A DNA stretch of 32,000 bases from an uncultured Chloroflexia bacterium (lineage in GTDB: Bacteria > Chloroflexota > Ktedonobacteria > Ktedonobacterales > JADMIN01), in the NCBI GenBank assembly GCA_963718915.1, contig CAVRAI010000004.1:480001-512000 (forward strand). The letters run 5' to 3'. Position 1 is the stretch's first letter. Each line of letters starts with the position of its first letter. The notes under the pieces were generated by a model that saw only the letters and a program-made list of their open reading frames with translations, made no database searches and was not told where the DNA came from. The position numbers and the translations under genes are program-made. This document shows, one piece after another, positions 17,793 through 30,390 of the stretch.

Positions 17793-18305
17793 ATGAGACT
17801 GCTGATTCTTGGCTGTGGTCGCGTGGGGGCGACTCTGGCCAATATCATGATCAAAGATGGTCATGAGGTCACTGTCATTGACCTCAATAGCGAAGCCTTT
17901 GAACGCCTGGGATCGAACTTTGGTGGCGTAACAATCGTCGGAGACGGCACAGACGAAGATGTGTTGATGCGCGCGGGCATCGAAGATGCGCAGGCATTCG
18001 CGGCTGTGACAAATGGCGACAATCGCAATATCCTGGCTGCCCAGATTGCTAAACATATCTTTGGCATTCAAAAGGTGATCTGCCGCATTTATGACCCAAT
18101 CCGGCAAGAAACGTACAATGCGCTTGGCCTGGAGAGTATCTCTCCTACAGTTGTTGGCGCGAAGCTCATCAAGACAGCGCTCATCAATGATGCGCCCCGC
18201 ACCAAATCGGCTGTGCAATCCATTGCCGAAGGTCGGCCCGTTCCATCCGCCACCGAGCCTGAGAAACCGCTGACCACGCCAGCGGCCACTGGGGAGAAAC
18301 ACTAG
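17793..18305 (+). CDS. TrkA-N (RCK N-terminal, NAD-binding) domain protein, K+-uptake regulatory subunit
   Basis: MRLLILGCGRVGATLA...GHEVTVID...GDGTDEDVL..AGIEDA.AF.AVT. Start set at the ATG at 17793, preceded by GGAGAAGAAGGGA; the ORF-track start at 17601 adds 64 unlikely residues. There is no TrkA-C domain; the tail is Pro/Thr-rich. Confidence 0.85.
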   Translation: MRLLILGCGRVGATLANIMIKDGHEVTVIDLNSEAFERLGSNFGGVTIVGDGTDEDVLMRAGIEDAQAFAAVTNGDNRNILAAQIAKHIFGIQKVICRIYDPIRQETYNALGLESISPTVVGAKLIKTALINDAPRTKSAVQSIAEGRPVPSATEPEKPLTTPAATGEKH

Positions 18306-18309
18306 ACCT

Positions 18310-18984
18310 ATGTATATCGTTATCGGCGGTGGCGGACAGGTGGGTTATTATCTGGCGAAAGGTCTCATCGAGCAGGGCCATGAGGTGGTGCTGCTCGAGA
18401 AAGATAGCAAACGTGTCGAGCGCCTGTCTGAAGAGTTGAGCAACTCCATCATACGGGGCGACGCATGTGAGGCGCGCACACTGGCCGAGGTCGGCACGTC
18501 GCGCGCGAATCTGGTTATCGCGGTGACAGGCGATGACGAGGATAATCTGGTCATTTGCCAGGTGGCCAAGGCGCGCTTCCACGTCGCCACCACCATCGCG
18601 CGCGTGAACAATCCTCGCAACGAAGGGCTTTTCCGCAAGCTTGGCATTGATGTCATCGTCAGTCCAACCCAGTCGATCCTGCATATGATCGAGGCGCAAT
18701 TACCGCATCATACGCTGGTGCCGCTCATGACGCTGACGAAGGCTGGCCTGGGACTGGTAGAGCTGACGGTGCCACCGACATCACCCGCCGCGGGCAAGAC
18801 GGTGCGGTCGATGACCCTCCCCAATTCGGTCAATCTGGCGCTGATCGTGCGTGGCGACACCAATCTGACCCCTACGGGCGACACCGTGATTCTGCCAGAA
18901 GACCACATTTTCGCGCTGGTCACGGCGGAAGGCGAGTTGTCGCTTCGAGAGAGGCTGTTGAATGAGGGTGGTGCGCGTCTGTAA
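18310..18984 (+). CDS. trkA: TrkA-family K+-uptake regulatory protein (TrkA-N + TrkA-C)
   Basis: MYIVIGGGGQVGYYLAK.L...GHEVVLLEKD, GDACE...L.EVG, and a C-terminal TrkA-C-like segment (LVELTVPPTSPAAGKTVRSMTLP). It starts 4 nt after the previous gene. Confidence 0.9.
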   Translation: MYIVIGGGGQVGYYLAKGLIEQGHEVVLLEKDSKRVERLSEELSNSIIRGDACEARTLAEVGTSRANLVIAVTGDDEDNLVICQVAKARFHVATTIARVNNPRNEGLFRKLGIDVIVSPTQSILHMIEAQLPHHTLVPLMTLTKAGLGLVELTVPPTSPAAGKTVRSMTLPNSVNLALIVRGDTNLTPTGDTVILPEDHIFALVTAEGELSLRERLLNEGGARL

Positions 18985-19021
18985 AAGAGACGAACTCCCT
19001 GCCGGTTGATATCCTCTTGAT

Positions 19022-19054
19022 ATCCTCCCCATTCGTTCTGAGATTGGGGAGGAT
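19022..19054. terminator. Hairpin between convergent trkA and purB ends
   Basis: ATCCTCCCCA/TGGGGAGGAT form a perfect 10-bp stem with a 13-nt loop, followed on the + strand by GGTTGTTTCC (weak U-tract). Confidence 0.4.
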
Positions 19055-19078
19055 GGTTGTTTCCACCCGCTCTTCCTT

Positions 19079-20380
19079 TTAGAGCAGGTGAAGACGCTCG
19101 AAGGCAGTGTCGATGTTGACGAGATATGCCTTTGGGTCGGCAATTTCGTCAAGTTCGTCTGCTGTTATGTGGGCCATGACCTCGGAGTCGGCTTTGAGCA
19201 TCGCAAGCAGCCCCTGCCCCTGGTCTTCATTGCGCCAGACCTTCTGCGCATTGCGCTGCACCAGCTTATAGGCCTCCTGGCGATCCATCCCCTTATCCAC
19301 CAGCGCCAGCAGGATACGCGAGGAATAGATAAGCCCGCGTGTCATCTCCAGGTTGGCGCTCATGCGCTCCTCATCCACCTCCAGCCCCTGCATGACCGAG
19401 TTGAAGAGCCAGAGCATGTAGTGAAGTAATCCTGTGCTGTCTGGCAGAATTATCCGTTCGGCGGAGGAGTGGCTGATATCGCGCTCGTGCCAGAGAGCGA
19501 CGTTTTCCATCGCGGTGATGGCGTGCCCGCGCAGTACCCGCGCCAGCCCACAGATGCGCTCGCACTTCTCCGGGTTGCGCTTGTGCGGCATGGCGGATGA
19601 ACCCTGCTGCTGCGCGCCAAATGGCTCGAACGCCTCGCCCAGCTCGGTGCGCTGTAGATGACGAATCTCCTGCGCCATCTTCTCCAGTGAGGAGCCGATA
19701 AGCGCCAGCACGCTGACGAATTCGGCATGGCGGTCGCGCTGGACGATCTGCGTTGAGACCGGCGCGGGCTGGAGTCCCAGTTCGGCGCAGACATATTCTT
19801 CGATGCTCGGCGGTACGGTGGCATGGGTGCCGACGGCGCCCGAAATCGCGCCGACGGCGATAGTATCGATGGCGTGATCCAGCCGTGCTCGGCAGCGGCG
19901 CAACTCGTCAACCCACATCGCCAGTTTGAAGCCGAAGGTCGTTGGCTCGGCGTGGATGCCATGGGTCCGACCGACCATGAGGGTGGTGCGGTAGCGAAGC
20001 GCGGCGTGCGTAGTGGTTTCGCTCAGCGCGTCGAGTTGCTCACGCAGGAGCGCGCCAGCCTGAACCAGTTGTACCGCCAGGGAAGTGTCGAGCATATCGG
20101 ATGATGTGAGTCCGAGGTGTAACAAGCGCCCTTCTGGCCCCAGGCGCTCCTGGACGGACCTCAGAAACGAGATCACATCGTGGTGAATCTCTTCTTCAAG
20201 CTCGCGGGCGCGCGCCAGATCATAGGTAGCCTCGCGCAGCTTCGCCATATCTTCAGCGGAGATGACGCCCTCACGCGCCCATCCCTCGCAGACCAGCAAT
20301 TCGACCCGCAGCCATGTATCGAGCTTATTTTCATCCGACCAGACCCGCGCCATCTCAGGCCGGGTGTAGCGTTCAATCAT
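19079..20380 (-). CDS. purB: Adenylosuccinate lyase
   Basis: MIERYTRPEM..VWSDENK, and the fumarate-lyase signature GSSAMPHKRNP. Full length (433 aa), with a strong SD GAAGGAGAAGG. Confidence 0.95.
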   Translation of the reverse strand: MIERYTRPEMARVWSDENKLDTWLRVELLVCEGWAREGVISAEDMAKLREATYDLARARELEEEIHHDVISFLRSVQERLGPEGRLLHLGLTSSDMLDTSLAVQLVQAGALLREQLDALSETTTHAALRYRTTLMVGRTHGIHAEPTTFGFKLAMWVDELRRCRARLDHAIDTIAVGAISGAVGTHATVPPSIEEYVCAELGLQPAPVSTQIVQRDRHAEFVSVLALIGSSLEKMAQEIRHLQRTELGEAFEPFGAQQQGSSAMPHKRNPEKCERICGLARVLRGHAITAMENVALWHERDISHSSAERIILPDSTGLLHYMLWLFNSVMQGLEVDEERMSANLEMTRGLIYSSRILLALVDKGMDRQEAYKLVQRNAQKVWRNEDQGQGLLAMLKADSEVMAHITADELDEIADPKAYLVNIDTAFERLHLL

Positions 20381-20528
20381 GCCTTCTCCTTCGCGGACGC
20401 GCCGTCTCGCTGTAGCATCTATGCGGTGCGGTCGGCGTGTGGGTGGCGCCGCTCGCGTGGTTTCTCACTCTTTATCGTACCGCATTGTGCCGCGTTCCTG
20501 CTGTTAGAGAAGGTAGCGGGTGAAGATG

Positions 20529-20924
20529 TTAGCTGAGGTCATAGTCCAGAGTGAGCGTGTGGCCACCGTCGGCGTCGATAGTGATATTGCCCCGACCACC
20601 GATTCCCTGTAGTTCGCCCGTGCCTGAGTCGCGCATAATGGTCAGGCTCAACGATTGCCCATCGCTCGACATGCTGGCGTCGTGAACCAGCACGAAACTT
20701 CCCGACCTGTCGTGAAGACGGCCCACAATACGTTCGAGTCCGACATAGACGGCGGAACCGCCCGGCGCGCCAGCCATCAGCAGTACTGCCGTACTCTGGC
20801 CCTCCAGATCACCCTGAAAAGTCTTGGCTAAGTGCGTGCGGGTCAGCTTGACCCCATCAAGATCGTCGTATTCCTCTGGTTCCCAGGAAGTGATCGCAAA
20901 TGTGCAGGTCGCGTGGGTCGTCAT
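20529..20924 (-). CDS. DUF3224-family protein
   Basis: About 130 aa. The pattern ...SWEPEEYDDLDG.KLTR....TF.GDLEG......LM......SA.YVGLERIVGRL..RSGSFVL.H........TI...SGTGEL.G..G...I....GGHT.TLDYDL matches my memory of DUF3224 proteins. Confidence 0.8.
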   Translation of the reverse strand: MTTHATCTFAITSWEPEEYDDLDGVKLTRTHLAKTFQGDLEGQSTAVLLMAGAPGGSAVYVGLERIVGRLHDRSGSFVLVHDASMSSDGQSLSLTIMRDSGTGELQGIGGRGNITIDADGGHTLTLDYDLS

Positions 20925-20979
20925 GTGGGTGCTTCCCTCACTCTTGTAGCTTGCTAGAAGGTTATTGCTATGGTCAGGT

Positions 20980-21585
20980 TCAGGCTGATTTAGCCAGCCG
21001 CCGACGCGGAGTGACAGACTTCGACGGAGCGCGTGTGGATTTGTCGACGGCAGCCGCTTTCGCCACCGCCGACCTGCGCGTTGCCTTCGGCTTCACCGGA
21101 GACGCAGGAGACGCAGGAGACGCAGGCGTGATTGTAACATGCGTCGGCTTCTTCGCCACAGACTTGGTAGCTCGCGTGGGCTTATGCGCTCCCGGCCTGG
21201 CACGTTGTGCAGACCTCTCCGTCGCTCTCTCCGCCGCCTTCGTGATCCTTTCGACGGTTGGGTTTGCACGCCGTCCGGCCTTAACGGCCTTGGCAGACTT
21301 GGCAGACTTGACGTCGGGTGATTTTGCCGGTCTGATTGTTTTCGTTGCCGACTTTGTCGCGATCTGCGCTGTTCTGGTAGCGGTTGACCTGGTTGGTGCG
21401 GCAATTTGGGTAGCGCTGGTCGTTTTGGTAGTTTTGGCTAATTTTCCTGCCGTGGCCCGAACTGGCTTTGCGATCCGCGCGCCCTTCTCGACTTTCTCGA
21501 CGGTAGGTGTAGCTGGCTTTGCCGACACTTTGGCGCGCTTTGCCGTGGCAGGCGCGGTGTCCCATAGTGTCGCCTGCTTGGCCAC
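20980..21585 (-). CDS. Lys/Ala/Thr/Pro-rich (histone-H1-like) low-complexity ORF; probably the displaced C-terminal part of the upstream gene
   Basis: Starts at a GTG. Its composition matches the tail of ORF 21281..22198 before position ~21590. It overlaps that ORF by 305 nt in another frame. See the frameshift finding. Confidence 0.5.
   Translation of the reverse strand: MAKQATLWDTAPATAKRAKVSAKPATPTVEKVEKGARIAKPVRATAGKLAKTTKTTSATQIAAPTRSTATRTAQIATKSATKTIRPAKSPDVKSAKSAKAVKAGRRANPTVERITKAAERATERSAQRARPGAHKPTRATKSVAKKPTHVTITPASPASPASPVKPKATRRSAVAKAAAVDKSTRAPSKSVTPRRRLAKSA
21098..21126. repeat. 3 x 9-bp perfect tandem repeat (GGAGACGCA)
   Basis: Read directly. It encodes (PAS)x3 in the minus-strand low-complexity ORF. 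A second small one, GGCAGACTT x2, lies near 21293-21310. Confidence 0.9.
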
Positions 21586-22198
21586 GACTGCGTTGCGTCT
21601 GCGTTGGCGTCGCCGACCGCTTTACCGTGGACTTGACTGAAAGGGCAGAAATCGCGGGTTCGGCAGATTTCTCCGCCGCCGCTGTCTTAGCAACCCTGGC
21701 GACTTTGGGCTTGGGGACAGTGGCATCCGTGTCCTTCGCGACCCTAGCCTTCACAGACAGAGTGGCTTTTGGCGTCGTAGTGGCTGTCATTGCAGGGTTT
21801 GGCGGCGGACTGGCGGGCGCTGCTGCTTTCGGCGTCGCCTTCGCCGGTCGAGGCTGTCTAATCCCCCGAGAGCGCCGTGGCGTCTCATCATCCTTTGCGA
21901 GGAGCGGGTTGGGTATGACGATATCTTCTTCACCCATGCCCAGGAGAAAGGTATTTGGATGCAGGCGCTCGTCGGGTTCGAGCCGCAATTTACGAGGCAG
22001 CTCGATGACTGGCGTACGCGTGCGCCTCCGATGGCTTGCGGAAGCCTCGGTGAGCGCCTTCAGTTGTTGCGGAGGCAGTTGGCATACCGTCGGCGCGAAG
22101 CCTAGCCGATCTCGGTACCGCTCGGTTGCCTCGATGATCTTCGCAGCCAGCGGACGTCTGGCGTCGTCGTCGTACCAGAGCAATCCTGCCATGACCAT
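21281..22198 (-). CDS. Hypothetical protein: conserved-looking ~100-aa N-terminal domain plus AKPT-rich basic tail (the reading frame probably breaks near 21590)
   Basis: SD GAGAGGA lies 8 nt upstream of the ATG at 22198. The N-terminus MVMAGLLWYDDDARRPLAAKIIEATERYRDRLGFAPTVCQL... looks globular, followed by PKAAAPASPP...KPKVARVAKTAAAEK. After ~21590 the translation turns into atypical Cys/His/Tyr/Asn-rich sequence. Confidence 0.6.
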   Translation of the reverse strand: MVMAGLLWYDDDARRPLAAKIIEATERYRDRLGFAPTVCQLPPQQLKALTEASASHRRRTRTPVIELPRKLRLEPDERLHPNTFLLGMGEEDIVIPNPLLAKDDETPRRSRGIRQPRPAKATPKAAAPASPPPNPAMTATTTPKATLSVKARVAKDTDATVPKPKVARVAKTAAAEKSAEPAISALSVKSTVKRSATPTQTQRSRGQAGDTMGHRACHGKARQSVGKASYTYRRESREGRADRKASSGHGRKISQNYQNDQRYPNCRTNQVNRYQNSADRDKVGNENNQTGKITRRQVCQVCQGR

Positions 22199-22695
22199 AG
22201 GAATGATCCTCTCGTGCGTACATTTGTTCTAGTTCAGTATATGGCGTAGGCTAGCGCCTGTCAATCGCTGAAATGCCAAATCTGGCGGTGATGATTACCC
22301 TTCAGGTGCGCTGTCCGAAGCCCAAACGCTGCGGCTAATATGGCGGGAAATTTGCCGGGATTCAAGCCATGAATCGCTCACTGACCTCCACCATCTGGTG
22401 GATTATTGTGTAACTTGCATGTATTCATTCTCCGCAGAGCATGTTAATTCGGTATGCAGAACGTCAAAAGTCGTTGCTGCGAGTCAGTATTGATTACCTG
22501 ATATAGTTATAAGTCTCACTATTTGCTTGTATTGGAAATTAGCTGCAAATAACTCTTTACAAGCAGCATATTCTCTCTTTCAGGGCTGAGGGATTAGCCG
22601 CTGAAGACTTCGCAATATTATGCGCTTTGCTATCGTGGCTTCGTGGGCCTGAGCCGTATTCTCCCTTTCCTCTGGTGGAGTTAATGAGCGAATCT

Positions 22696-23187
22696 CTAGT
22701 TCTCCCTTTCATTGTAGGGTGATGGCGTTCGATATGCGAGCAGTGTAGCCGCGAGTGCGAGAACTAGCACAGGCAAGAATATGCCATTATCATGCACCAC
22801 GTAATACAGGCGGAGCAACCCATCTGTTGGATAGGATAATGGATAGATAATCCAAAGTAGCAGCAATGTGGTGAGTCCAAGGAGCACCTTACGCCAAACG
22901 TTTCGGCGGGAATAGAGGTGCGCCATCACACTCAGGGCAAAGCCGCAGATAGTGAGCGCAAGCAATATGTATACAACGAGATAACCTACCGTCAGCTCGA
23001 GCTGGAGAGTGGAAACATACTGGATAGTATGGACACCGTTGGCGCCAGATGTCCCAACTCTCCATCGCGGCGCGAAGAGTGTGAAAGCCAGTGCAGCAAG
23101 ACCAACAAGACTCGCTCCAAGGCCACTCAAGAGTTCGGCCTTGTTCCTAAGGCGCCAGATCGCTACTCGATGCATGTCTCTCGCCAT
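22696..23187 (-). CDS. Hypothetical 4-TM membrane protein (orphan, low-GC region)
   Basis: 163 aa with four clear hydrophobic helices. No family recognised. It lies downstream of, and on the same strand as, the secreted-protein gene. Confidence 0.65.
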   Translation of the reverse strand: MARDMHRVAIWRLRNKAELLSGLGASLVGLAALAFTLFAPRWRVGTSGANGVHTIQYVSTLQLELTVGYLVVYILLALTICGFALSVMAHLYSRRNVWRKVLLGLTTLLLLWIIYPLSYPTDGLLRLYYVVHDNGIFLPVLVLALAATLLAYRTPSPYNEREN

Positions 23188-23373
23188 CCTTTCAGATGTC
23201 CAAATCAGATCTGTTGTACGTGTTTGAGGTCACTCAACATCTACTCAGCCCGGCAGTTGAATTGCTTGAACTGGCACGCAGCCGAATGAATGGAAGTGCT
23301 TCTGGGTTTCCTTCATACGACTGCGTACCACAACTGAATATCAGATTCTACTCTCGTAGATGCCGTAAGTTTG

Positions 23374-24177
23374 TCAGTTTAGTGGCCCAATGGACCAACT
23401 GTCATCAGAATAACCCCATGGACATCCCGAGTTACCTGGCTTATCATCGACGGTCCACTGAAAATTGTGCCCTGGTGGGTCACTAAACCAGTTGGTGAAT
23501 GTCTCCAGCGTATAGAACGGCAGCAGGCGGCATTGCAACTGATCGTGATGACTGAGATAGTCATTATAGAGCCAACCAGGGGGATGGATTGACCCCTCGT
23601 TCTCCATACCTGTCTGGCCAAAGTTCAGCCAGTCCTGGCAGTCGATAGGTGGGCCACTATCTCTTCCATAGTTGACGAAGGAGTACATCAGGATCGTGCC
23701 TGGTGGATCTGGTAAGTCGGCATTCCAGTACATTTCTGCTTTTATGTACTGGCCACAACCAGTTCGACACACTGCTCCACACTGGACAAGTGGCGTGCTT
23801 GTGGCGTGGAAAGCTGTGGCGCGTGTCTTGGCGATGAGGGTCTGTACTGACGCCTGAGATGCAGGAATCATCAGGTATGCAAGGTGCCTCGCTCGCGCAT
23901 GGGAAAGTGGCATCTCCCTTGTGAGAATCACAGCCCCTGGCCCGCAGGCATGTTGATATTTCACATGCTGGGTTGACTTTCCGGGATTGACTGTCAATTT
24001 GATCGTGCAACTTGATCCAGGCACGGATGACAGGTCATAAACTGCGACTACTTGGGGATCAGCCTGTGCATGTGCGTCTGCGACCACTGAGAGTTCAGGT
24101 AATAGCAGGGTTGCACAGACCATCATCCCGAGTGTGACCACGAGCACGCTCACTAGATGTCCTGGTTTCCGTAGCAT
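23374..24177 (-). CDS. Hypothetical secreted Cys-rich protein (orphan, low-GC region)
   Basis: N-terminal signal-peptide-like MLRKPGHLVSVLVVTLGMMVCATLLLP...ADAHA. About 10 Cys and Trp/Tyr/Asp-rich. SD AAGGAA lies 5 nt upstream of the ATG. No family recognised. Confidence 0.7.
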   Translation of the reverse strand: MLRKPGHLVSVLVVTLGMMVCATLLLPELSVVADAHAQADPQVVAVYDLSSVPGSSCTIKLTVNPGKSTQHVKYQHACGPGAVILTREMPLSHARARHLAYLMIPASQASVQTLIAKTRATAFHATSTPLVQCGAVCRTGCGQYIKAEMYWNADLPDPPGTILMYSFVNYGRDSGPPIDCQDWLNFGQTGMENEGSIHPPGWLYNDYLSHHDQLQCRLLPFYTLETFTNWFSDPPGHNFQWTVDDKPGNSGCPWGYSDDSWSIGPLN

Positions 24178-24188
24178 AGTTGTTCCTT

Positions 24189-24214
24189 ACTTCACCTCTT
24201 GACTTCACCTCTTG
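24189..24214. repeat. 2 x 13-bp perfect tandem duplication containing an SD-like motif
   Basis: ACTTCACCTCTTG x2 on the + strand, i.e. CAAGAGGTGAAGT x2 on the coding (minus) strand. It ends 11 nt upstream of the 24177 start codon. Confidence 0.9.
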
Positions 24215-24333
24215 ACGGAAATGAAAATCTTTGCCCGAGGTATTTCCCCATCGCATTTTGAGGAAGGGTTTCCTATGCGCAGTTCTGACTCCACAGAACA
24301 TTACGAGTAAGCTTACTGCGATGCCACGATGCA

Positions 24334-24554
24334 TCGACGAGGAAGGGATTGCGACGAGGAAGGGATTGCGACGAGGAAGGGATTGCGACGAGGAAGGGAT
24401 TGCGACGAGGAAGGGATTGCGACGAGGAAGGGATTGCGACGAGGAAGGGATTGCGACGAGGAAGGGATTGCGACGAGGAAGGGATTGCGACGAGGAAGGG
24501 ATTGCGACGAGGAAGGGATTGCGACGAGGAAGGGATTGCGACGAGGAAGGGATT
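24334..24554. repeat. 13 head-to-tail copies of a 17-bp unit (GCGACGAGGAAGGGATT), 221 bp
   Basis: Counted directly. Units start at 24334, 24351, ... 24538. All are identical except the first base of copy 1 (T for G). There are no spacers. The unit has no stop codon in any of the six frames. Confidence 0.98.
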
Positions 24555-24628
24555 CGGTACTCAACTCCCCTCCTAAGCAGAGCAAGTGACCGCATTAGGT
24601 AAAAGACAACATCCTCAAAATCGACTTC

Positions 24629-24657
24629 AGCATACACAATATTTCATAGCATGTCAA
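24629..24657 (-). promoter_or_regulatory. Sigma70-type promoter reading into the 17-bp array and the orphan genes
   Basis: Minus strand: TTGACA (24657-24652), 17 nt, TATGCT (24634-24629). It lies downstream of the greA terminator and upstream of the array. Confidence 0.5.
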
Positions 24658-24740
24658 GGACATACATAAAGTGATGTAAACAAAGCGAATATCTTGACAT
24701 TGTGATAACTGCTAGCGCTACGATAGGAGGATATCGCGTC

Positions 24741-24769
24741 AAAAAGCTGGCCGGAATGCTCCAGCCAGC
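24741..24769 (-). terminator. Intrinsic terminator of greA
   Basis: Minus strand: GCTGGCTGG/CCGGCCAGC (9 bp, one G-U, 6-nt loop) followed by TTTTT, 30 nt after the greA stop. Confidence 0.75.
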
Positions 24770-24798
24770 GTCATGAATCGGCACTCGATACACGTGCG

Positions 24799-25317
24799 TC
24801 AATGGATGTCTTTGACGGTGTAGATGACCGTTCCTCCCGGTGTGGACACCTCGACTTTGTCGCCGATGGCATGGCCCATGAGCGCTCGCCCAACTGGAGA
24901 TTGGTCAGAGAGTTTGCCAGTCGTTGAATTAGCCTCGGCGCTGCTCACCAGCGTGAAGGTGCGGCTCGTGCCACGATCTGTCTCGACGTCGATGCTGGTG
25001 CCCAGTCGTACCGTGCGCTTGCCGCCGGTATGCTGCGGTGTTTCCAGAATGACCGCATGTTCCAGCAGGTGCTGAAGTTCCTGTATCTCACCCTCGACCA
25101 TAGCCTGGAGATTTTTCGCGTCTTCATACGCGCTACTTTCAGAGATATCGCCAGCTTCCTTGGCCTCGTGAATATAGTCGGCAACTTGCTGGCGACGCTC
25201 GGTGATGAGAAACGTGAGGCGAGCCTGATTCTCCTCGTAACCCTCACGTGTCAATGGAATGCGCTCTGTCTCGGCGGCGCGTCCCCCGTGACTATTATTT
25301 GTCGCATTTGTCGCCAT
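24799..25317 (-). CDS. greA: Transcription elongation factor GreA
   Basis: IPLTREGYE...L..L...R..V...I.EA...GD.SE.S.Y..AK, and a C-terminal domain ...SP.GRAL.G...GD.V.V..P.G. Start set at the ATG at 25317 with AAGGAG upstream. The 186 extra N-terminal codons in the ORF track have no GreA counterpart and cover the promoter and leader. Confidence 0.9.
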   Translation of the reverse strand: MATNATNNSHGGRAAETERIPLTREGYEENQARLTFLITERRQQVADYIHEAKEAGDISESSAYEDAKNLQAMVEGEIQELQHLLEHAVILETPQHTGGKRTVRLGTSIDVETDRGTSRTFTLVSSAEANSTTGKLSDQSPVGRALMGHAIGDKVEVSTPGGTVIYTVKDIH

Positions 25318-25438
25318 AGTCCATACTCCTTGCTTCTCCGTATAGGTTGGTGGCTGTGTGCGCTGTAACGCGAACGAACTGCCCTTGGCCGCGCAGGCCG
25401 CGCCACGGAGATATGCCGGTTGGCCCGGCTTGCAGCAT

Positions 25439-25470
25439 AAAAAAACTGGCGGGGTCCAAAAGGCCCGCCA
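25439..25470 (-). terminator. Promoter-proximal intrinsic terminator inside the greA leader
   Basis: Minus strand: TGGCGGG(CC)-UUUU-(GG)ACCCCGCCA stem (7 bp, extendable by 2), then G and TTTTTTT (25445-25439). It is 122-153 nt upstream of the greA ATG. No upstream minus-strand gene needs terminating here. Confidence 0.7.
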
Positions 25471-25499
25471 CAGGCTCATCTTGCCAGAAGATGCCTGCA

Positions 25500-25529
25500 A
25501 GTATATGCGTGGATGAATGCGAATGTCAA
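25500..25529 (-). promoter_or_regulatory. Sigma70-type greA promoter
   Basis: Minus strand: TTGACA (25529-25524), 18 nt, TATACT (25505-25500). The predicted TSS is near 25492, about 50 nt upstream of the leader terminator's U-tract. Confidence 0.5.
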
Positions 25530-25698
25530 GGTGTATAGAGCAAGCGAATGGCGGTGGATTGCATTGGATTGCATTGATAGCATCGTGGCGCAGACGCATG
25601 ATTGATGGTCGCGATTGTGCGAGGCGTCGCTTGCGCCATGCATGCTTGGGCTGGTACGATAGGCCGGGCGTGAGAAGTCTGGCATCAGGAGAAAACAG

Positions 25699-27150
25699 GT
25701 GGAGAATCAGGAGCCATTTGTTACGATTCCGCTGCGGAACGGCGCATCGGCGACGGTGCGACACGATGGCGTGCATGTGGATGAGCGGATGTATGCGCTG
25801 GCCGATGTTCAGGATGCGCGCCAGGTCGCGCCTGACCCTGTAACAATTGCGCTGCGCGTGGCGAACGAGCGTCACGTCGTCGAGCTTCAGCCCGCACAGG
25901 CTAGCGATGGCGCGTTATTGCTTGAAGCCTTGTTCCGGCTGCGGCCAGAATTACGGCCAGCAGGCTTTGAGGCGCCCGCGACGCTTCCCGCGGGTTTCCC
26001 ACCGCTGCCGCAGCCAACACACCAACAAGTGGCCCCTGCCCCATGGGGAGCGCACCCAAGCTGGCCGCCACACCCGGGCATGTATCCGCCACCGCCCCAA
26101 CCCGCGTTGCCACCGTCTATGCCTCCTTATGCTTCCCCACACTATCCACCCGTCGGCGCAACTGGTGGTCGTTTGACACCCTATCCACGTGGCGTCGGTG
26201 AGTTGATCGGAGCGACATTCGCACTGTTCACGGCGCACTGGCGAAGTTGGCTGCTGCTGGGTCTGGTGGCGCTCTTCGTACCCCAGATGGTAAATGGCGC
26301 GGTGGATGCGGTATTCCACGTGCTCGGAGGCAATGATCTCTGGGCTGGCTTGTCGTTGACGTCACAGAGCGCGGGGAGCGGCGGTCTCGGCTTAGGCAGC
26401 ACAACCTTGCCCCAGGGCCGTGATCTGCTGCTGACCTCTCTCGACCTATTGATAACAGCGATAGTGAGTGCGTTGATTAGTGGATGGTCTGCCGCTGTCC
26501 TGGGAAATGCGGGCCGCTATGCGTTGTTTGGCCGTGCCCCGAAGATTGGCGAGTCGCTACGCGCCGGGCTAAAGCGGGCTTTCCCGGCGCTGGGCGCCAG
26601 CATTCTCAGCGGCGCAATTGTGCTGCTTATCTTGCTGCCGGTTCTTGTCCTCTATGGCATCTTGCTCACACAGTTCGGCGATGCTTTAAAGGATCCGACC
26701 AGTCTCGATTCGTCGTCAACAGCCGGTGCTGTTTTCACGCTGCTGGGGTGCCTGACATTGCTCTTCATGGTGCCCTGTATCATCTTTGCGATCTACGTCT
26801 ATGTGCGGCTCATCCTGTCTCCCTATATCGCTGCGACGGAGGCGCTGGGGCCAGTTGCGTCGCTACGCCGTAGCTGGAATCTGACGCGCAGGCAGTGGGC
26901 GCGTGTCTTCTGGCCATTATTCGTGACTGCAGTGCTCGTCGCTATCATTTCATTCCCTGTCAGTTTTGTGGAGTATGCATCGTATGGAGTCGCAGCGCTG
27001 ATAGCGAATCCGCTGATTTCCGCGTTGACAGCGCCACTCGTTGCGCTTGCGGCAATTTCCGTGCTCTATGATCTGCGGCTGCGACGAGAGGGCTATGCGG
27101 CGCTTGCGAGCGAGAGTGTTGGCGAGGAGCCAGAGCCGACATCAGTCTAG
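25699..27150 (+). CDS. Hypothetical membrane protein: small N-terminal soluble domain, Pro-rich linker, ~6-TM C-terminal domain
   Basis: GTG start preceded by AGGAG. Residues ~90-165 are Pro-rich (PPHPGMYPPPPQPALPPSMPPYASPHYPP), followed by multiple long hydrophobic helices. No confident family. Confidence 0.8.
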   Translation: MENQEPFVTIPLRNGASATVRHDGVHVDERMYALADVQDARQVAPDPVTIALRVANERHVVELQPAQASDGALLLEALFRLRPELRPAGFEAPATLPAGFPPLPQPTHQQVAPAPWGAHPSWPPHPGMYPPPPQPALPPSMPPYASPHYPPVGATGGRLTPYPRGVGELIGATFALFTAHWRSWLLLGLVALFVPQMVNGAVDAVFHVLGGNDLWAGLSLTSQSAGSGGLGLGSTTLPQGRDLLLTSLDLLITAIVSALISGWSAAVLGNAGRYALFGRAPKIGESLRAGLKRAFPALGASILSGAIVLLILLPVLVLYGILLTQFGDALKDPTSLDSSSTAGAVFTLLGCLTLLFMVPCIIFAIYVYVRLILSPYIAATEALGPVASLRRSWNLTRRQWARVFWPLFVTAVLVAIISFPVSFVEYASYGVAALIANPLISALTAPLVALAAISVLYDLRLRREGYAALASESVGEEPEPTSV

Positions 27151-27458
27151 CTATCATCCCGTGACAGTGGCCTGACAAAAACCAGGCCGACCAGAACACT
27201 CCCGCAGGACAGATGTCCTTGCTCATTACTCCCGGCGTCTGTGAACGTTATGAGAGATAGAGAAACCTCACTGGCGTGCCGCCATGGCCCGTCAGTCGCC
27301 TCCCAGGTGGACGAGGAACGCGGGAGCGGCCAGCGATATGTCCCACGGCGTCGCTTCCCGTATTGCCAGGAGAGATGATAGGGCTTACGATGCGCGCAGG
27401 TGTATCGGTCTGGGCTTGAAAGTGAGGATGTGACAGCGCGTGCGGACGGGCTGTCATA

Positions 27459-28328
27459 ATGGCAGGCATGGCAAAGAACACACCCGGAAAACCTCATCCA
27501 CCATCCCTCGGCAACTTGCCGCTGATCCATGCCAGTTCCCAGGTGGAATATTGGCTTGGGCACTATTGGGAACAGCTTAAGATACCCACCAGTCAGTTAC
27601 GCTTTCTCGCCATTACGATGGATCGCCAGGAGTTCGCGGAATGGACTGGGCGAAGGCTTCAGTCGATGGCGCTTGGTTGTTATTGCTACCTGCCGCTCAG
27701 CAACATTGCCGGTACCGTGACTGACCATAGCGCCTCGCCTGATATTGTCGAAGTCGCCACTGAAGAGCGGACTGCCTCACGAACGCCATCGCTTCAGCCG
27801 ACGCTACCTGGCTTCGATACATACATAGACTACTATGCTCACGGAACCTCTTCTTTCGCACCGGCAGGCGACTTTCGCCATCTCATTTTCATCGAGCCAG
27901 GTATGCTCGAACGCGGCATCGAGGTGACGGTTGCCCACGAGCTGATTCACCTGTCGGATCGCGTGCAGGGACGACCACGCAAACATCAGTGCCATGGCAA
28001 CGACTCCATCTCGTTCGACGAGGCGGTGATTACCGGACGGGATGCCGAGACACTCCGCCGAGAGTTGGCCGAGGAGACGCGGCGGCGTGAAGAGTCGCTA
28101 CGGCGTATTCGCCCCTATAAATACTTCTACTATTGCCCTCAGTGCCATCGCGGTTATCCACGTGTGCGGCGCTATGCGCGGCCAGTCTCCTGTGGCCATT
28201 GCTTTCGCCAGTATAATCCCGACTTTGTGTTGCGACTGCGCCTCGCGCCAGATGGCCCGGATGTCGATCCAGAGTATGTAATGCCGCAGGAAGCGCTGGG
28301 CGACTCCGGCGACTCCATCACTGAGTAG
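27459..28328 (+). CDS. Putative SprT-like zinc metallopeptidase with C-terminal zinc ribbon
   Basis: HExxH motif in TVAHELIHLSD. C-terminal CxxC...CxxC (YYCPQCHRGYPRVRRYARPVSCGHCFRQY) resembles the SprT-family ribbon. The start is uncertain (ATG at 27459 or 27468). The N-terminal half is not recognisable. Confidence 0.6.
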   Translation: MAGMAKNTPGKPHPPSLGNLPLIHASSQVEYWLGHYWEQLKIPTSQLRFLAITMDRQEFAEWTGRRLQSMALGCYCYLPLSNIAGTVTDHSASPDIVEVATEERTASRTPSLQPTLPGFDTYIDYYAHGTSSFAPAGDFRHLIFIEPGMLERGIEVTVAHELIHLSDRVQGRPRKHQCHGNDSISFDEAVITGRDAETLRRELAEETRRREESLRRIRPYKYFYYCPQCHRGYPRVRRYARPVSCGHCFRQYNPDFVLRLRLAPDGPDVDPEYVMPQEALGDSGDSITE

Positions 28329-28339
28329 CTCGTGCAAAG

Positions 28340-29122
28340 CTACAGTGAAGCGGGTGTGGTCGAGTCCGCTGGAGGCCGCGGAATCCTCATCCAGTCGAGC
28401 AGGTCATAGAGTGTCGTCGCGACGAGGCAATCTATCTGCGCGGGATCATGCACGCGACGGCGGTCGAGCAGAATTGGTGTGATCCCGACAGCGCGCGCGC
28501 CCAACACATCGAGTACATAGGAGTCGCCGATGTGAAGGGTATAGTCGGGGATGGCGTCGGCACGCTCGAGCGCCGTCTGGAAGAGTTGCGGATCGGGTTT
28601 CGCTCGGCGAGCCTGCGCGGAGATGACCGCGAAATCAAAGAAGTCTATCAGGTCATAATGGCGCAGGATCAGGCTCAGGCTCACCCCCCAGTCGGAGATC
28701 ACGCCGAGGGTCAGGCCATGCTCATGTAGCGCATGCAGGCAAGGCAGCACATCGGGATAGAGCGCATAGTTGCCCGCGTCGTCAAAGGCGCGAACCGTCT
28801 CCTGGACGCAGATTTCCAGGCGTTCCGGCTGATCGGCGAGGCAGGGGCGGAGCATTTCGGTGAAATAACTCGTCCAGATGCCATTGATGGCATTCTCATC
28901 GCCCCACGTCCAGGGCTGTGCCTTCGACATACTGCGCAGATGATCCTCGGAGCGCTTTTGCTGCTGGCGCAGGCAGTTCACGTCAATCGCCACACCCAGG
29001 CGCTGACTGGCGTCTAGAACAATCTGCGTCACCGATGGATGAGGCGCGAGCAGGGTGTAGCCAACATCGAAGAAGATGGCCCGTACAGCCTGTGGATTGG
29101 GAAGCTCGCGCGGTGCTGACAT
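28340..29122 (-). CDS. HAD-superfamily hydrolase (subfamily IA-like)
   Basis: Motif I IFFDVGYTLL, motif II GVISDWG, motif III/IV K...HIGDSYVLDVLGARAVG. Substrate not predictable. Confidence 0.85.
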   Translation of the reverse strand: MSAPRELPNPQAVRAIFFDVGYTLLAPHPSVTQIVLDASQRLGVAIDVNCLRQQQKRSEDHLRSMSKAQPWTWGDENAINGIWTSYFTEMLRPCLADQPERLEICVQETVRAFDDAGNYALYPDVLPCLHALHEHGLTLGVISDWGVSLSLILRHYDLIDFFDFAVISAQARRAKPDPQLFQTALERADAIPDYTLHIGDSYVLDVLGARAVGITPILLDRRRVHDPAQIDCLVATTLYDLLDWMRIPRPPADSTTPASL

Positions 29123-29160
29123 GAAGTACTCTCCTGGGATATGCGCGACGGGTCAAATGC

Positions 29161-30390
29161 CTATACACCGGTAGATTGCCCGGTATAGATAACCTCGGCG
29201 GCGGCGACGCCCGCGCCAGCGGTCAGCGTATGGCCGAAGCGCGGTAGCAAGCGCTCGAATGCACTAAGCACGCGCAGGATGTTGCGCCTCTCAGCATTGT
29301 AGCCCATGATGCCGACGCGCCATACCTTGCTAGCATAGTCACCCAGACCGCCACCAATCTCGATACCGTCCTCTTCCAGCAGCGCCTTGCGGAGGCCGAC
29401 GACATCACCCACGCCGTCTGGAACGCGCAATGCCGCCACCATCGGCAACTGATGCTCTGGCCCGGCCAATGGTATCATCCCAAGCGCTGCCGCTCCCGCC
29501 CGGAGCGCCATGCCGTTCAGCATGTGGCGAGCGTAGCGGGCGTCCAATCCCTCGGTCAGGGTCAGACGCAGGGCGGTGTGGAGCGCGTAGATGAGCGAGA
29601 CGTTCGATGTGTGGTGGTACGCATGGGGTGGGTTCCAGTAACGCTGGAGCGCCAGCAGATCCAGGTACCAGCTTTGTACCGGCTGCTTGCGTCGCTCGAT
29701 AGCCTGCACGGCACGCGCGCTGAGGGTAATAGGTGCGAGTCCAGGTAGTGCGCCAAGACATTTCTGCGTGCAGCTATAGACGGCGTCGAGTTCCAGTTTA
29801 TCCACTGGGATGGACATTCCGCCGAGCGCCGTTACCGCGTCCACGACAAGTAACGCGCCAATCTCGTGGGCTAGTGCGGCAATGTCCGCCAATGGCTGCT
29901 CTACGCCGGTCGAGGTCTCCGCCAGCACAACTGCGATGGCTTTCACCTGTCCCAATTCTCGCGCCGCCGCGCGGAGCGCATCCGCCGCTATTGGCGTGCC
30001 CCAGTCGCCCGCGACTGTGGTGACCCGCGCGCCGCACCGCGCGCCGATCTCCGCCATCTTCGCACCGAAAAAGCCCGCCGCGCCGACCAACAGCGTATCG
30101 CCTGGCTCCAGCAGATTGCAGAGCGACGCCTCCATCCCAGAGAAGCCCGTGCCTGGGACGGCGAGCGTCAGGGCGTTGCTCGTGCCAAAGACCTGCCGTA
30201 GCATCTCTGCCGTCTCGCCAAGTATCGCCAGGTAGGCTGGATCGAGATGCCCGAGCACCGGAGCAGCCGCAGCCCGCAGCACGGCAGGATGCGGGTTGCT
30301 CGGCCCTGGCCCCATCAATAGCCGCTCAGGCGGCTCGACAGGGGCGTAGACGGCGGATGCGCTTGCGGTCGCTGACGATGCTGCGGGCAT
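29161..30390 (-). CDS. Class-V pyridoxal-phosphate aminotransferase (serine-pyruvate / alanine-glyoxylate type)
   Basis: LLMGPGPSN..P.VL.A, PGTGFSGMEA, and the PLP-lysine context YSCTQKCLGALPGL. SD AAAGGAG upstream. Confidence 0.9.
   Translation of the reverse strand: MPAASSATASASAVYAPVEPPERLLMGPGPSNPHPAVLRAAAAPVLGHLDPAYLAILGETAEMLRQVFGTSNALTLAVPGTGFSGMEASLCNLLEPGDTLLVGAAGFFGAKMAEIGARCGARVTTVAGDWGTPIAADALRAAARELGQVKAIAVVLAETSTGVEQPLADIAALAHEIGALLVVDAVTALGGMSIPVDKLELDAVYSCTQKCLGALPGLAPITLSARAVQAIERRKQPVQSWYLDLLALQRYWNPPHAYHHTSNVSLIYALHTALRLTLTEGLDARYARHMLNGMALRAGAAALGMIPLAGPEHQLPMVAALRVPDGVGDVVGLRKALLEEDGIEIGGGLGDYASKVWRVGIMGYNAERRNILRVLSAFERLLPRFGHTLTAGAGVAAAEVIYTGQSTGV

Follow-up and report, generated by a model that had tools for sequence, protein, structure and literature searches.

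A young, perfect 17-bp tandem array between greA and a secreted-protein gene in a soil Ktedonobacterales lineage, a candidate leader VNTR

Introduction

Tandem repeats in the leaders of bacterial genes are known from a few systems. The hmw1A and hmw2A genes of Haemophilus influenzae carry 7-bp leader repeats whose number is generally inverse to mRNA level (PMC2424069), and uspA2 of Moraxella catarrhalis has expression-setting AGAT repeats in its 5′ untranslated region (PMC4679880). Intergenic heptamer arrays (STRR, TAACTGA) of cyanobacteria and Beggiatoaceae also lie between promoter and start, with post-transcriptional roles proposed for them; such arrays occur at >100 loci per genome, and the Maribeggiatoa draft has 169 heptamer-repeat sets (PMC4679880). 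Here, we report the analysis of a 17-bp tandem array in an uncultured bacterium of the Ktedonobacterales, situated within a 32,000-nucleotide stretch of DNA (the window). To our knowledge, repeat-mediated contingency regulation has been found almost only in host-adapted pathogens and with 1- to 7-bp units. Like the repeats of hmw1A/hmw2A and uspA2, the array consists of perfect head-to-tail copies, its unit length is not divisible by 3, and it separates a promoter (here a promoter-like site) from the start codon of a gene for a secreted or surface protein. The heptamer arrays are multilocus, whereas the 17-bp array is single locus and its unit is missing from 331 kb of related loci.

Results

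The array itself is as follows.

24334 to 24554, no strand assigned: tandem array of 13 (12.9) head-to-tail copies of GCGACGAGGAAGGGATT, which reads AAUCCCUUCCUCGUCGC on the minus strand

Tandem Repeats Finder (TRF) placed it at 24335 to 24554 (period, 17; 12.9 copies; 100% matches; 0 indels; score, 440), and a pattern search with GCGACGAGGAAGGGATT returned 12 exact copies and, ahead of them, one whose first base (24334) is T instead of G. The two methods agree with each other and with an earlier note on this DNA, which had described 13 perfect head-to-tail 17-bp copies bar the first base of copy 1. The unit is without dyad symmetry, and its copies are contiguous and head to tail without spacers; a CRISPR array was ruled out, there being no spacers between the repeats. 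The statement of the same note that no frame of the unit holds a stop codon was borne out by its 17 cyclic trinucleotides, from all of which TAA, TAG, TGA, TTA, CTA, and TCA are absent. Because the unit is stop free on either strand, open reading frames (ORFs) in five listed frames traverse the array. Its edges are sharp (the 17 nt flanking either side match the unit at only ~3/17 bases), so no decayed copies flank it.

Outside the array, the pattern search (≤3 mismatches) found two 3-mismatch matches to the unit in 32 kb (expected, 0.13) and, at ≤2 mismatches, no further copy in the window. An exact 34-mer (two units) had 0 matches in the genome-contig collection, and across 185,579 species-representative genomes, the JGI metagenomes, and IMG/VR, a relaxed two-unit pattern met only four unrelated two-copy matches, none of them in the viral set (IMG/VR). 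The plasmid and phage collections were likewise free of the unit. The 12-mer core was missing from all related loci, and no other array of ≥4 copies was present in 331 kb of contigs from syntenic relatives and homologues. The 17-mer, for which the earlier note had considered a generic dispersed repeat, was absent from the rest of the window, the related loci, and the collections searched; a dispersed repeat family (REP/MIRU/STRR-like) was ruled out, the array being at a single locus in everything searchable. One of the four two-copy matches, in a Ruminobacter metagenome-assembled genome (L022, 2176 to 2204), is a duplication of GAGGAAGGGATTTGAAC that adjoins the tRNA-like GGGATTTGAACCC; it looks like a duplicated tRNA 3′ arm, unrelated to the array.

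The array lies within an insertion, for which the following features give the setting.

about 22265 to 24734, no strand assigned: lineage-specific insertion, 2.47 kb, GC content 0.41 to 0.58 by segment
22236 to 22264, minus strand: conserved promoter (TTGACA-17-TATACT) of the next conserved gene, at the left edge of the insertion
24746 to 24769, minus strand: intrinsic terminator of greA, a 10-bp stem with 7 GC pairs followed by TTTTT
24799 to 25323, minus strand: greA, 174 amino acids (aa) (Pfam GreA_GreB_N, 6e-20; GreA_GreB, 8.5e-21)
19079 to 20380: adenylosuccinate lyase gene, its product in a 90%-identity cluster with a protein from a Ktedonobacterales metagenome-assembled genome

Nineteen soil-metagenome contigs (L002 to L020) that share gene order with the window served as syntenic relatives. 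All 19 lack the insertion and align on both sides of it (BLASTN, 82 to 85% nucleotide identity), with positions 18001 to 22244 and 24735 to 30000 alignable and no counterpart for 22245 to 24734. They carry ~80 to 100 nt of intergenic DNA where the insertion sits, and in every relative contig that reaches greA, a conserved gene of 403 to 409 aa follows ~220 nt on. Left homology stops just past the conserved promoter, and right homology starts at the greA terminator, which is kept in the relatives and forms the right edge of the insertion. The GC content of the inserted segments compares with ~0.60 around them, and GC at third codon positions (GC3) is 0.53 to 0.55 versus 0.62 to 0.74 in the neighboring genes. 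Within the insertion, a stretch of ~430 bp (22265 to 22695; GC content, 0.46) is without an ORF and matches nothing. A mobile-element origin was considered and set aside: the insertion has no integrase or transposase ORF, no Pfam domain in its genes, no plasmid or phage similarity, and no inverted or direct repeats at its termini beyond chance-level 11- to 14-mers. On the alignments, the insertion is a segment apparently acquired recently, and by this Ktedonobacterales lineage only, between greA and the next conserved gene. The earlier note had taken no account of it.

A short-read contig of an independent Logan assembly (L001; 2,282 bp; run ERR11563127) matches 22058 to 24339 at 99.96% identity. 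It confirms the left junction of the insertion and terminates 6 nt into the array, those 6 nt matching. No contig besides that of the window spans the array, and a look for the right flank in other assemblies found no record of GreA products of 174 or 177 aa. A break at the array fits, because a repeat exceeding k breaks a k-mer assembly; the Logan assembly is also fragmentary (contigs of 1 to 2 kb; that of the 289-aa neighbor, 1.2 kb), so the break may be a coincidence. Elsewhere in the window, the conserved 403- to 409-aa gene (20980 to 22198), which has a Lys/Ala/Pro-rich tail, is divided between two frames by a 1-nt insertion (about 21585 to 21590) that adjoins an 11-nt tandem repeat, the tblastn alignment moving from frame 1 to frame 2 at 21590/21582. 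The split gene is either a pseudogene or an assembly consensus error.

Two genes, here called the cassette, occupy the insertion downstream of the array.

23374 to 24177, minus strand: gene for a secreted Cys/Trp-rich protein, 267 aa, member of a small family (HMMER, tblastn, alignment)
22696 to 23187, minus strand: gene for a small membrane protein with about four hydrophobic helices, 163-aa ORF (159 aa called from 23175)

The secreted-protein gene had been called an orphan. A word-indexed search with the 267-aa protein returned the self-match only; HMMER gave 20 relatives at E ≤ 1e-3 (e.g., a 267-aa protein with 37% identity and an E value of 3e-30), and the gene has a conserved partner, so that the word no longer applies. 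A homologue detected by DNA comparison (L026; JGI 3300007982) has 62% aa identity over 257 aa in a single frame (tblastn), and its alignment supports the ATG at 24177 as the start. The family consists of unannotated secreted proteins of 250 to 270 aa, with an N-terminal hydrophobic segment in all 15 members aligned and with Cys57, Cys78, His98, Tyr101, Cys141-Gly142, and Tyr207 invariant in the alignment (A1). The 267-aa protein had no Pfam match, and its AlphaFold model (mean pLDDT, 76.7; only 1/5 models good) had no fold match in the PDB by Foldseek (TM score about 0.13, a meaningless value). The membrane protein has four homologues (59 to 68% identity), and the order of the 267-aa homologue followed by the membrane-protein homologue is the same in L026, which makes the two a conserved pair. 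Both downstream genes are real genes under purifying selection, with dN/dS about 0.08 for the 267-aa gene (pN, 0.25; pS, 0.75) and about 0.23 for the membrane-protein gene (pN, 0.25; pS, 0.62).

Genomic contexts vary within the family, one member (L032) adjoining transposase fragments and an FtsX/ABC transporter. In L026, the homologue of the 267-aa gene is called as pieces of 82 aa and 119 aa because of one in-frame TAG (385 to 390), with no frameshift; pseudogenization, a sequencing error, or recoding of the stop may lie behind it.

The loci of the homologues are without the array. In L026, the ~50 nt upstream to the neighboring gene call contain no repeat, and neither the contigs of two membrane-protein homologues (L027 and L028) nor those of five 267-aa homologues (L029 to L033) have a comparable array or the 17-mer (≤4 mismatches). 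Since it is missing at all homologue loci examined, the array is a late, local addition. The very recent expansion suggested by the earlier note is supported by 100% identity, by sharp edges, and by the lack of an array upstream of the homologues. The array is a real, very young, single-locus minisatellite in everything searchable.

Between greA and the cassette, the following small features accompany the array.

24629 to 24657, minus strand: promoter-like TTGACA-17-TATGCT, consensus match 10/12
24260 to 24272, plus strand: solitary copy of the unit core, GAGGAAGGGTTTC (motif search)
24306 to 24317, no strand assigned: 12-bp palindrome AGTAAGCTTACT, at chance level
24189 to 24216, no strand assigned: a further perfect tandem duplication (13 bp × 2.2; minus-strand sequence, CAAGAGGTGAAGT)
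24313 to 24574, minus strand: candidate upstream ORF (uORF), hypothetical, 83 aa, with SD-like AGGAGGGGAG (24574 to 24565), UUG at 24564 to 24562, and stop at 24315 to 24313

A promoter at 24629 to 24657 and the greA terminator, both said earlier to lie upstream of the array, were found there, the promoter as a consensus match only. Between greA and the ATG at 24177, the minus strand has no other consensus-like promoter, and inspection by eye of 24178 to 24333 showed no acceptable −35/−10 pair. Promoter-like sites number 7 in that 3 kb versus 2.4 expected, so the match at 24657 to 24629 alone proves little. Transcription would start near 24622, so that the leader would be 445 nt long and the array would span about +68 to +288 of it. 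Because it lies downstream of the sole consensus-type promoter and 156 nt before the ATG, the array is most likely transcribed, as part of the 445-nt 5′ leader of the two-gene cassette. As in contingency loci, the repeat sits between a promoter-like site and the start codon of a secreted-protein gene. A promoter formed by the unit junctions was also considered and rejected (TTGCGA is a 5/6 match to a −35 element on the plus strand, with nothing −10-like 17 nt on).

The degenerate extra copy reported near the array is real, being the GAGGAAGGGTTTC at 24260 to 24272. The 9-mer GAGGAAGGG has one further occurrence in 32 kb, at 1923 (expected, 0.25); with the 9-mer this rare in the window, chance is unlikely to have placed a same-strand core copy 61 nt from the array. 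The 12-bp palindrome is likewise present at 24306 to 24317; it was said to abut the array, from which it stands 16 nt off, and it is statistically unremarkable. With 11 perfect 12-bp palindromes in the window and ~8 expected, AGTAAGCTTACT was dropped as a feature.

The duplication at 24189 to 24216 doubles the SD-like GAGGTGA that immediately precedes the ATG at 24177 and is a second young repeat within the leader that holds the array. Perfect tandem duplications with a period of 8 to 20 number 11 in the window versus 0.98 ± 0.9 expected (maximum, 3) in 100 third-order Markov simulations, a ~10-fold enrichment.

5598, 11936, 19006, 21098, 21289, 24189, 25297, 25555, and 28299: examples of tandem duplications in the window

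With 11 duplications against ~1 expected, mutation by short tandem duplication seems frequent in this genome or lineage, with the 17-bp array apparently the extreme case. Many perfect repeats of 9 to 11 bp also occur in the homologue contig L032.

In the minus-strand RNA of the array, C makes up 46.6% and G 11.8%, and each unit holds 7 YC dinucleotides; no other 200-nt stretch of the 32-kb window, whichever the strand, has so strong a C>G bias (0.35 to 0.37 versus 0.245 elsewhere). This RNA has essentially no structure (z, −0.35), with a minimum free energy (MFE) of −10.7 kcal/mol over 221 nt and a centroid that is open throughout. Shuffled sequences fold better than the whole leader does (z, +2.4), the proximal leader has a z of −1.4, and the plus-strand fold of the array (z, −3.4) is made solely of weak GAUU/GAUU self-pairs. 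In both MFE and centroid structures, the gene's own SD is unpaired with the array, and only an upstream SD-like AGGAGGGGA pairs with the unit. An Rfam search of 22000 to 25000 on both strands gave no match at E ≤ 1, Csr/Rsm sponge RNAs included. Slippage driven by hairpins was rejected as a candidate, the single-stranded DNA of the array being without structure. Sites for loading of Rho (rut) are described as loosely defined and C>G biased (PMC13650167). A C>G-biased, unstructured RNA of at least about 80 nt is what such a site calls for, and the 221-nt array RNA has this make-up.

Discussion

We favor, with a probability of about 0.5, a young slippage-made minisatellite (a variable-number tandem repeat [VNTR]) in the 5′ leader that damps the acquired cassette according to copy number and is a candidate site of Rho loading. 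A copy-number-variable VNTR that tunes downstream expression had already been put forward in the earlier note, and it is the best reading of the sequence, with both the variation and the effect presumptive. The array would have been made by tandem duplication of the 17-bp unit together with replication slippage or unequal recombination, and its RNA would contribute 220 nt of unstructured, C-rich, G-poor leader with the composition of a candidate rut site. More copies would give a longer, ribosome-free leader that loads Rho better and, with it, less full-length mRNA; plain length-dependent damping of the cassette may take the place of the Rho-sensitive kind. With 220 bp of perfect repeat open to slippage, the expression level would be heritable yet reversible. 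Damping of either kind, Rho sensitive or length dependent, is preferred because the array RNA is unstructured and rut-like in composition. The reading supposes that the promoter is used, that copy number is unstable, that it affects expression, and, in one version, that Rho is involved.

It is possible, if a more tentative proposition, that the array is a neutral by-product, a slippage accident in unconstrained, recently acquired noncoding DNA with no selected role and no meaningful effect. The array is missing upstream of every cassette homologue and unique across all collections searched, short perfect tandem duplications are in 10-fold excess in the lineage, the adjacent conserved gene is frameshifted beside another small tandem repeat, and the array holds no RNA structure, Rfam match, or conserved motif. 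A 220-nt C-rich leader insert, however, is unlikely to be wholly without effect if transcribed, contingency repeats classically sit where the array does, between promoter and secreted-protein gene, and the core motif recurs singly at a distance of 61 nt. The lack of an array at any homologue fits a neutral accident and a new regulator alike. That the array or its copy number is not as written, owing to an assembly or polishing artefact, we consider very improbable: the only independent contig halts at the array, and the 1-nt frameshift in a conserved gene 2.7 kb off is possibly a consensus error, but 13 perfect units with clean unique flanks in a 1.05-Mb contig are rare for artefacts, the left flank is confirmed by a short-read contig whose first 6 nt of array agree, and a break precisely there is expected of a genuine repeat longer than k.

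The remaining readings give the unit itself a function. Translation from the UUG at 24564 through the array would turn copy number modulo 3 into a three-state switch of translation and of shielding from Rho. Because 17 = 2 modulo 3, the uORF stop would cycle among 24315, 24275, and 24097, which in an in-silico copy-number series lie 135 nt or 95 nt ahead of the ATG or, in a different frame, 82 nt within the gene, the last overlapping the start of the gene. An SD-like sequence and a start codon stand immediately 5′ of the array, and the unit is stop free in every frame; such ORFs nonetheless arise automatically from any stop-free repeat, UUG is a weak start with an SD spacing of just 4 nt, and the SD-like AGGAGGGGAG is predicted to pair with the array unit, all of which leaves the frame switch unlikely. 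Hardly more probable is the combined form, in which the stop-free, C-rich array would toggle the cassette among at least three heritable states, copy number modulo 3 setting the uORF stop and copy number setting the exposure to Rho. A DNA array of protein-binding sites, iteron-like or operator, that titrates or nucleates a DNA-binding protein has in its favor a 17-bp unit within the iteron range and the nearby solitary core motif. Its iteron-like form, proposed in the earlier note, did not hold up: the insertion has no rep or regulator gene, rep-like Pfam domain, or plasmid or phage similarity, and there is no DnaA box in the 22- to 25-kb part of the window and none at ≤1 mismatch between 19302 and 25775. 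The unit is without dyad symmetry, contiguous copies of 17 bp are not in phase with the helix, so that neighboring sites would lie on different faces of it, and perfect identity with uniqueness in the collections is unlike functional site arrays, so that we give this reading very little credence. Least probable is an RNA that acts through complementarity or as a sponge, whether a CU-rich minus-strand RNA sequestering SDs or a GGA-rich plus-strand RNA titrating a CsrA-like protein. The unit is complementary to GAGGAAGGG-type sequences, the one upstream SD-like AGGAGGGGA pairs with it in MFE and centroid, and the plus strand has two GGA motifs per unit. The anti-SD idea, another of the earlier proposals, is nevertheless unsupported, because no pairing joins the gene's own SD to the array and shuffled leaders fold better than the real one; the array RNA is unstructured, the plus-strand fold has weak GAUU/GAUU pairs only, the sole plus-strand promoter-like site upstream of the array is weak (9/12) with no plus-strand terminator, and neither version has an Rfam match.

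If the array varies and damps expression, as the leader VNTR reading has it, contingency regulation would extend to uncultured soil Chloroflexota and to a 17-bp unit, and a regulatory element would have arisen inside a newly acquired cassette. A neutral array would be a further sign of the ready tandem duplication of the lineage and still a handy strain-typing marker. Either way, the understanding of such repeats is unchanged.

VNTR or minisatellite loci serve in typing by multilocus VNTR analysis (MLVA), an example being mycobacterial MIRU-VNTR. The array is like these loci in being an intergenic, lineage-specific tandem array with a unit in the 10- to 100-bp range, of the kind that changes by slippage or unequal recombination. 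MIRUs are dispersed over many loci with imperfect copies, whereas the array here is single locus where searchable and its copies are perfect. Plasmid iterons are direct repeats of ~17 to 22 bp (those of RK2 oriV are 17 bp) with helical-phase spacing and imperfect copies, beside a rep gene, an AT-rich unwinding element, and DnaA boxes. The unit size of the direct repeat is similar here; the spacing, the imperfection, the rep gene, the unwinding element, and the DnaA boxes are not found. With rut sites and Rho-dependent leader attenuators, the array shares a long, unstructured, C>G-biased, apparently untranslated RNA in a probable 5′ leader; natural rut sites are not perfect tandem repeats.

In hmw1A/hmw2A and uspA2, copy number steps the level of mRNA or protein (PMC2424069, PMC4679880), whereas the array here is known from its sequence. 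The unit is 17 bp rather than 4 to 7 bp, the host is a free-living soil member of the Chloroflexota rather than a host-adapted pathogen, and the array is conserved at no homologous locus. It is a bacterial VNTR or candidate leader-type contingency repeat, which is a known class of repeat, and may have a contingency role.
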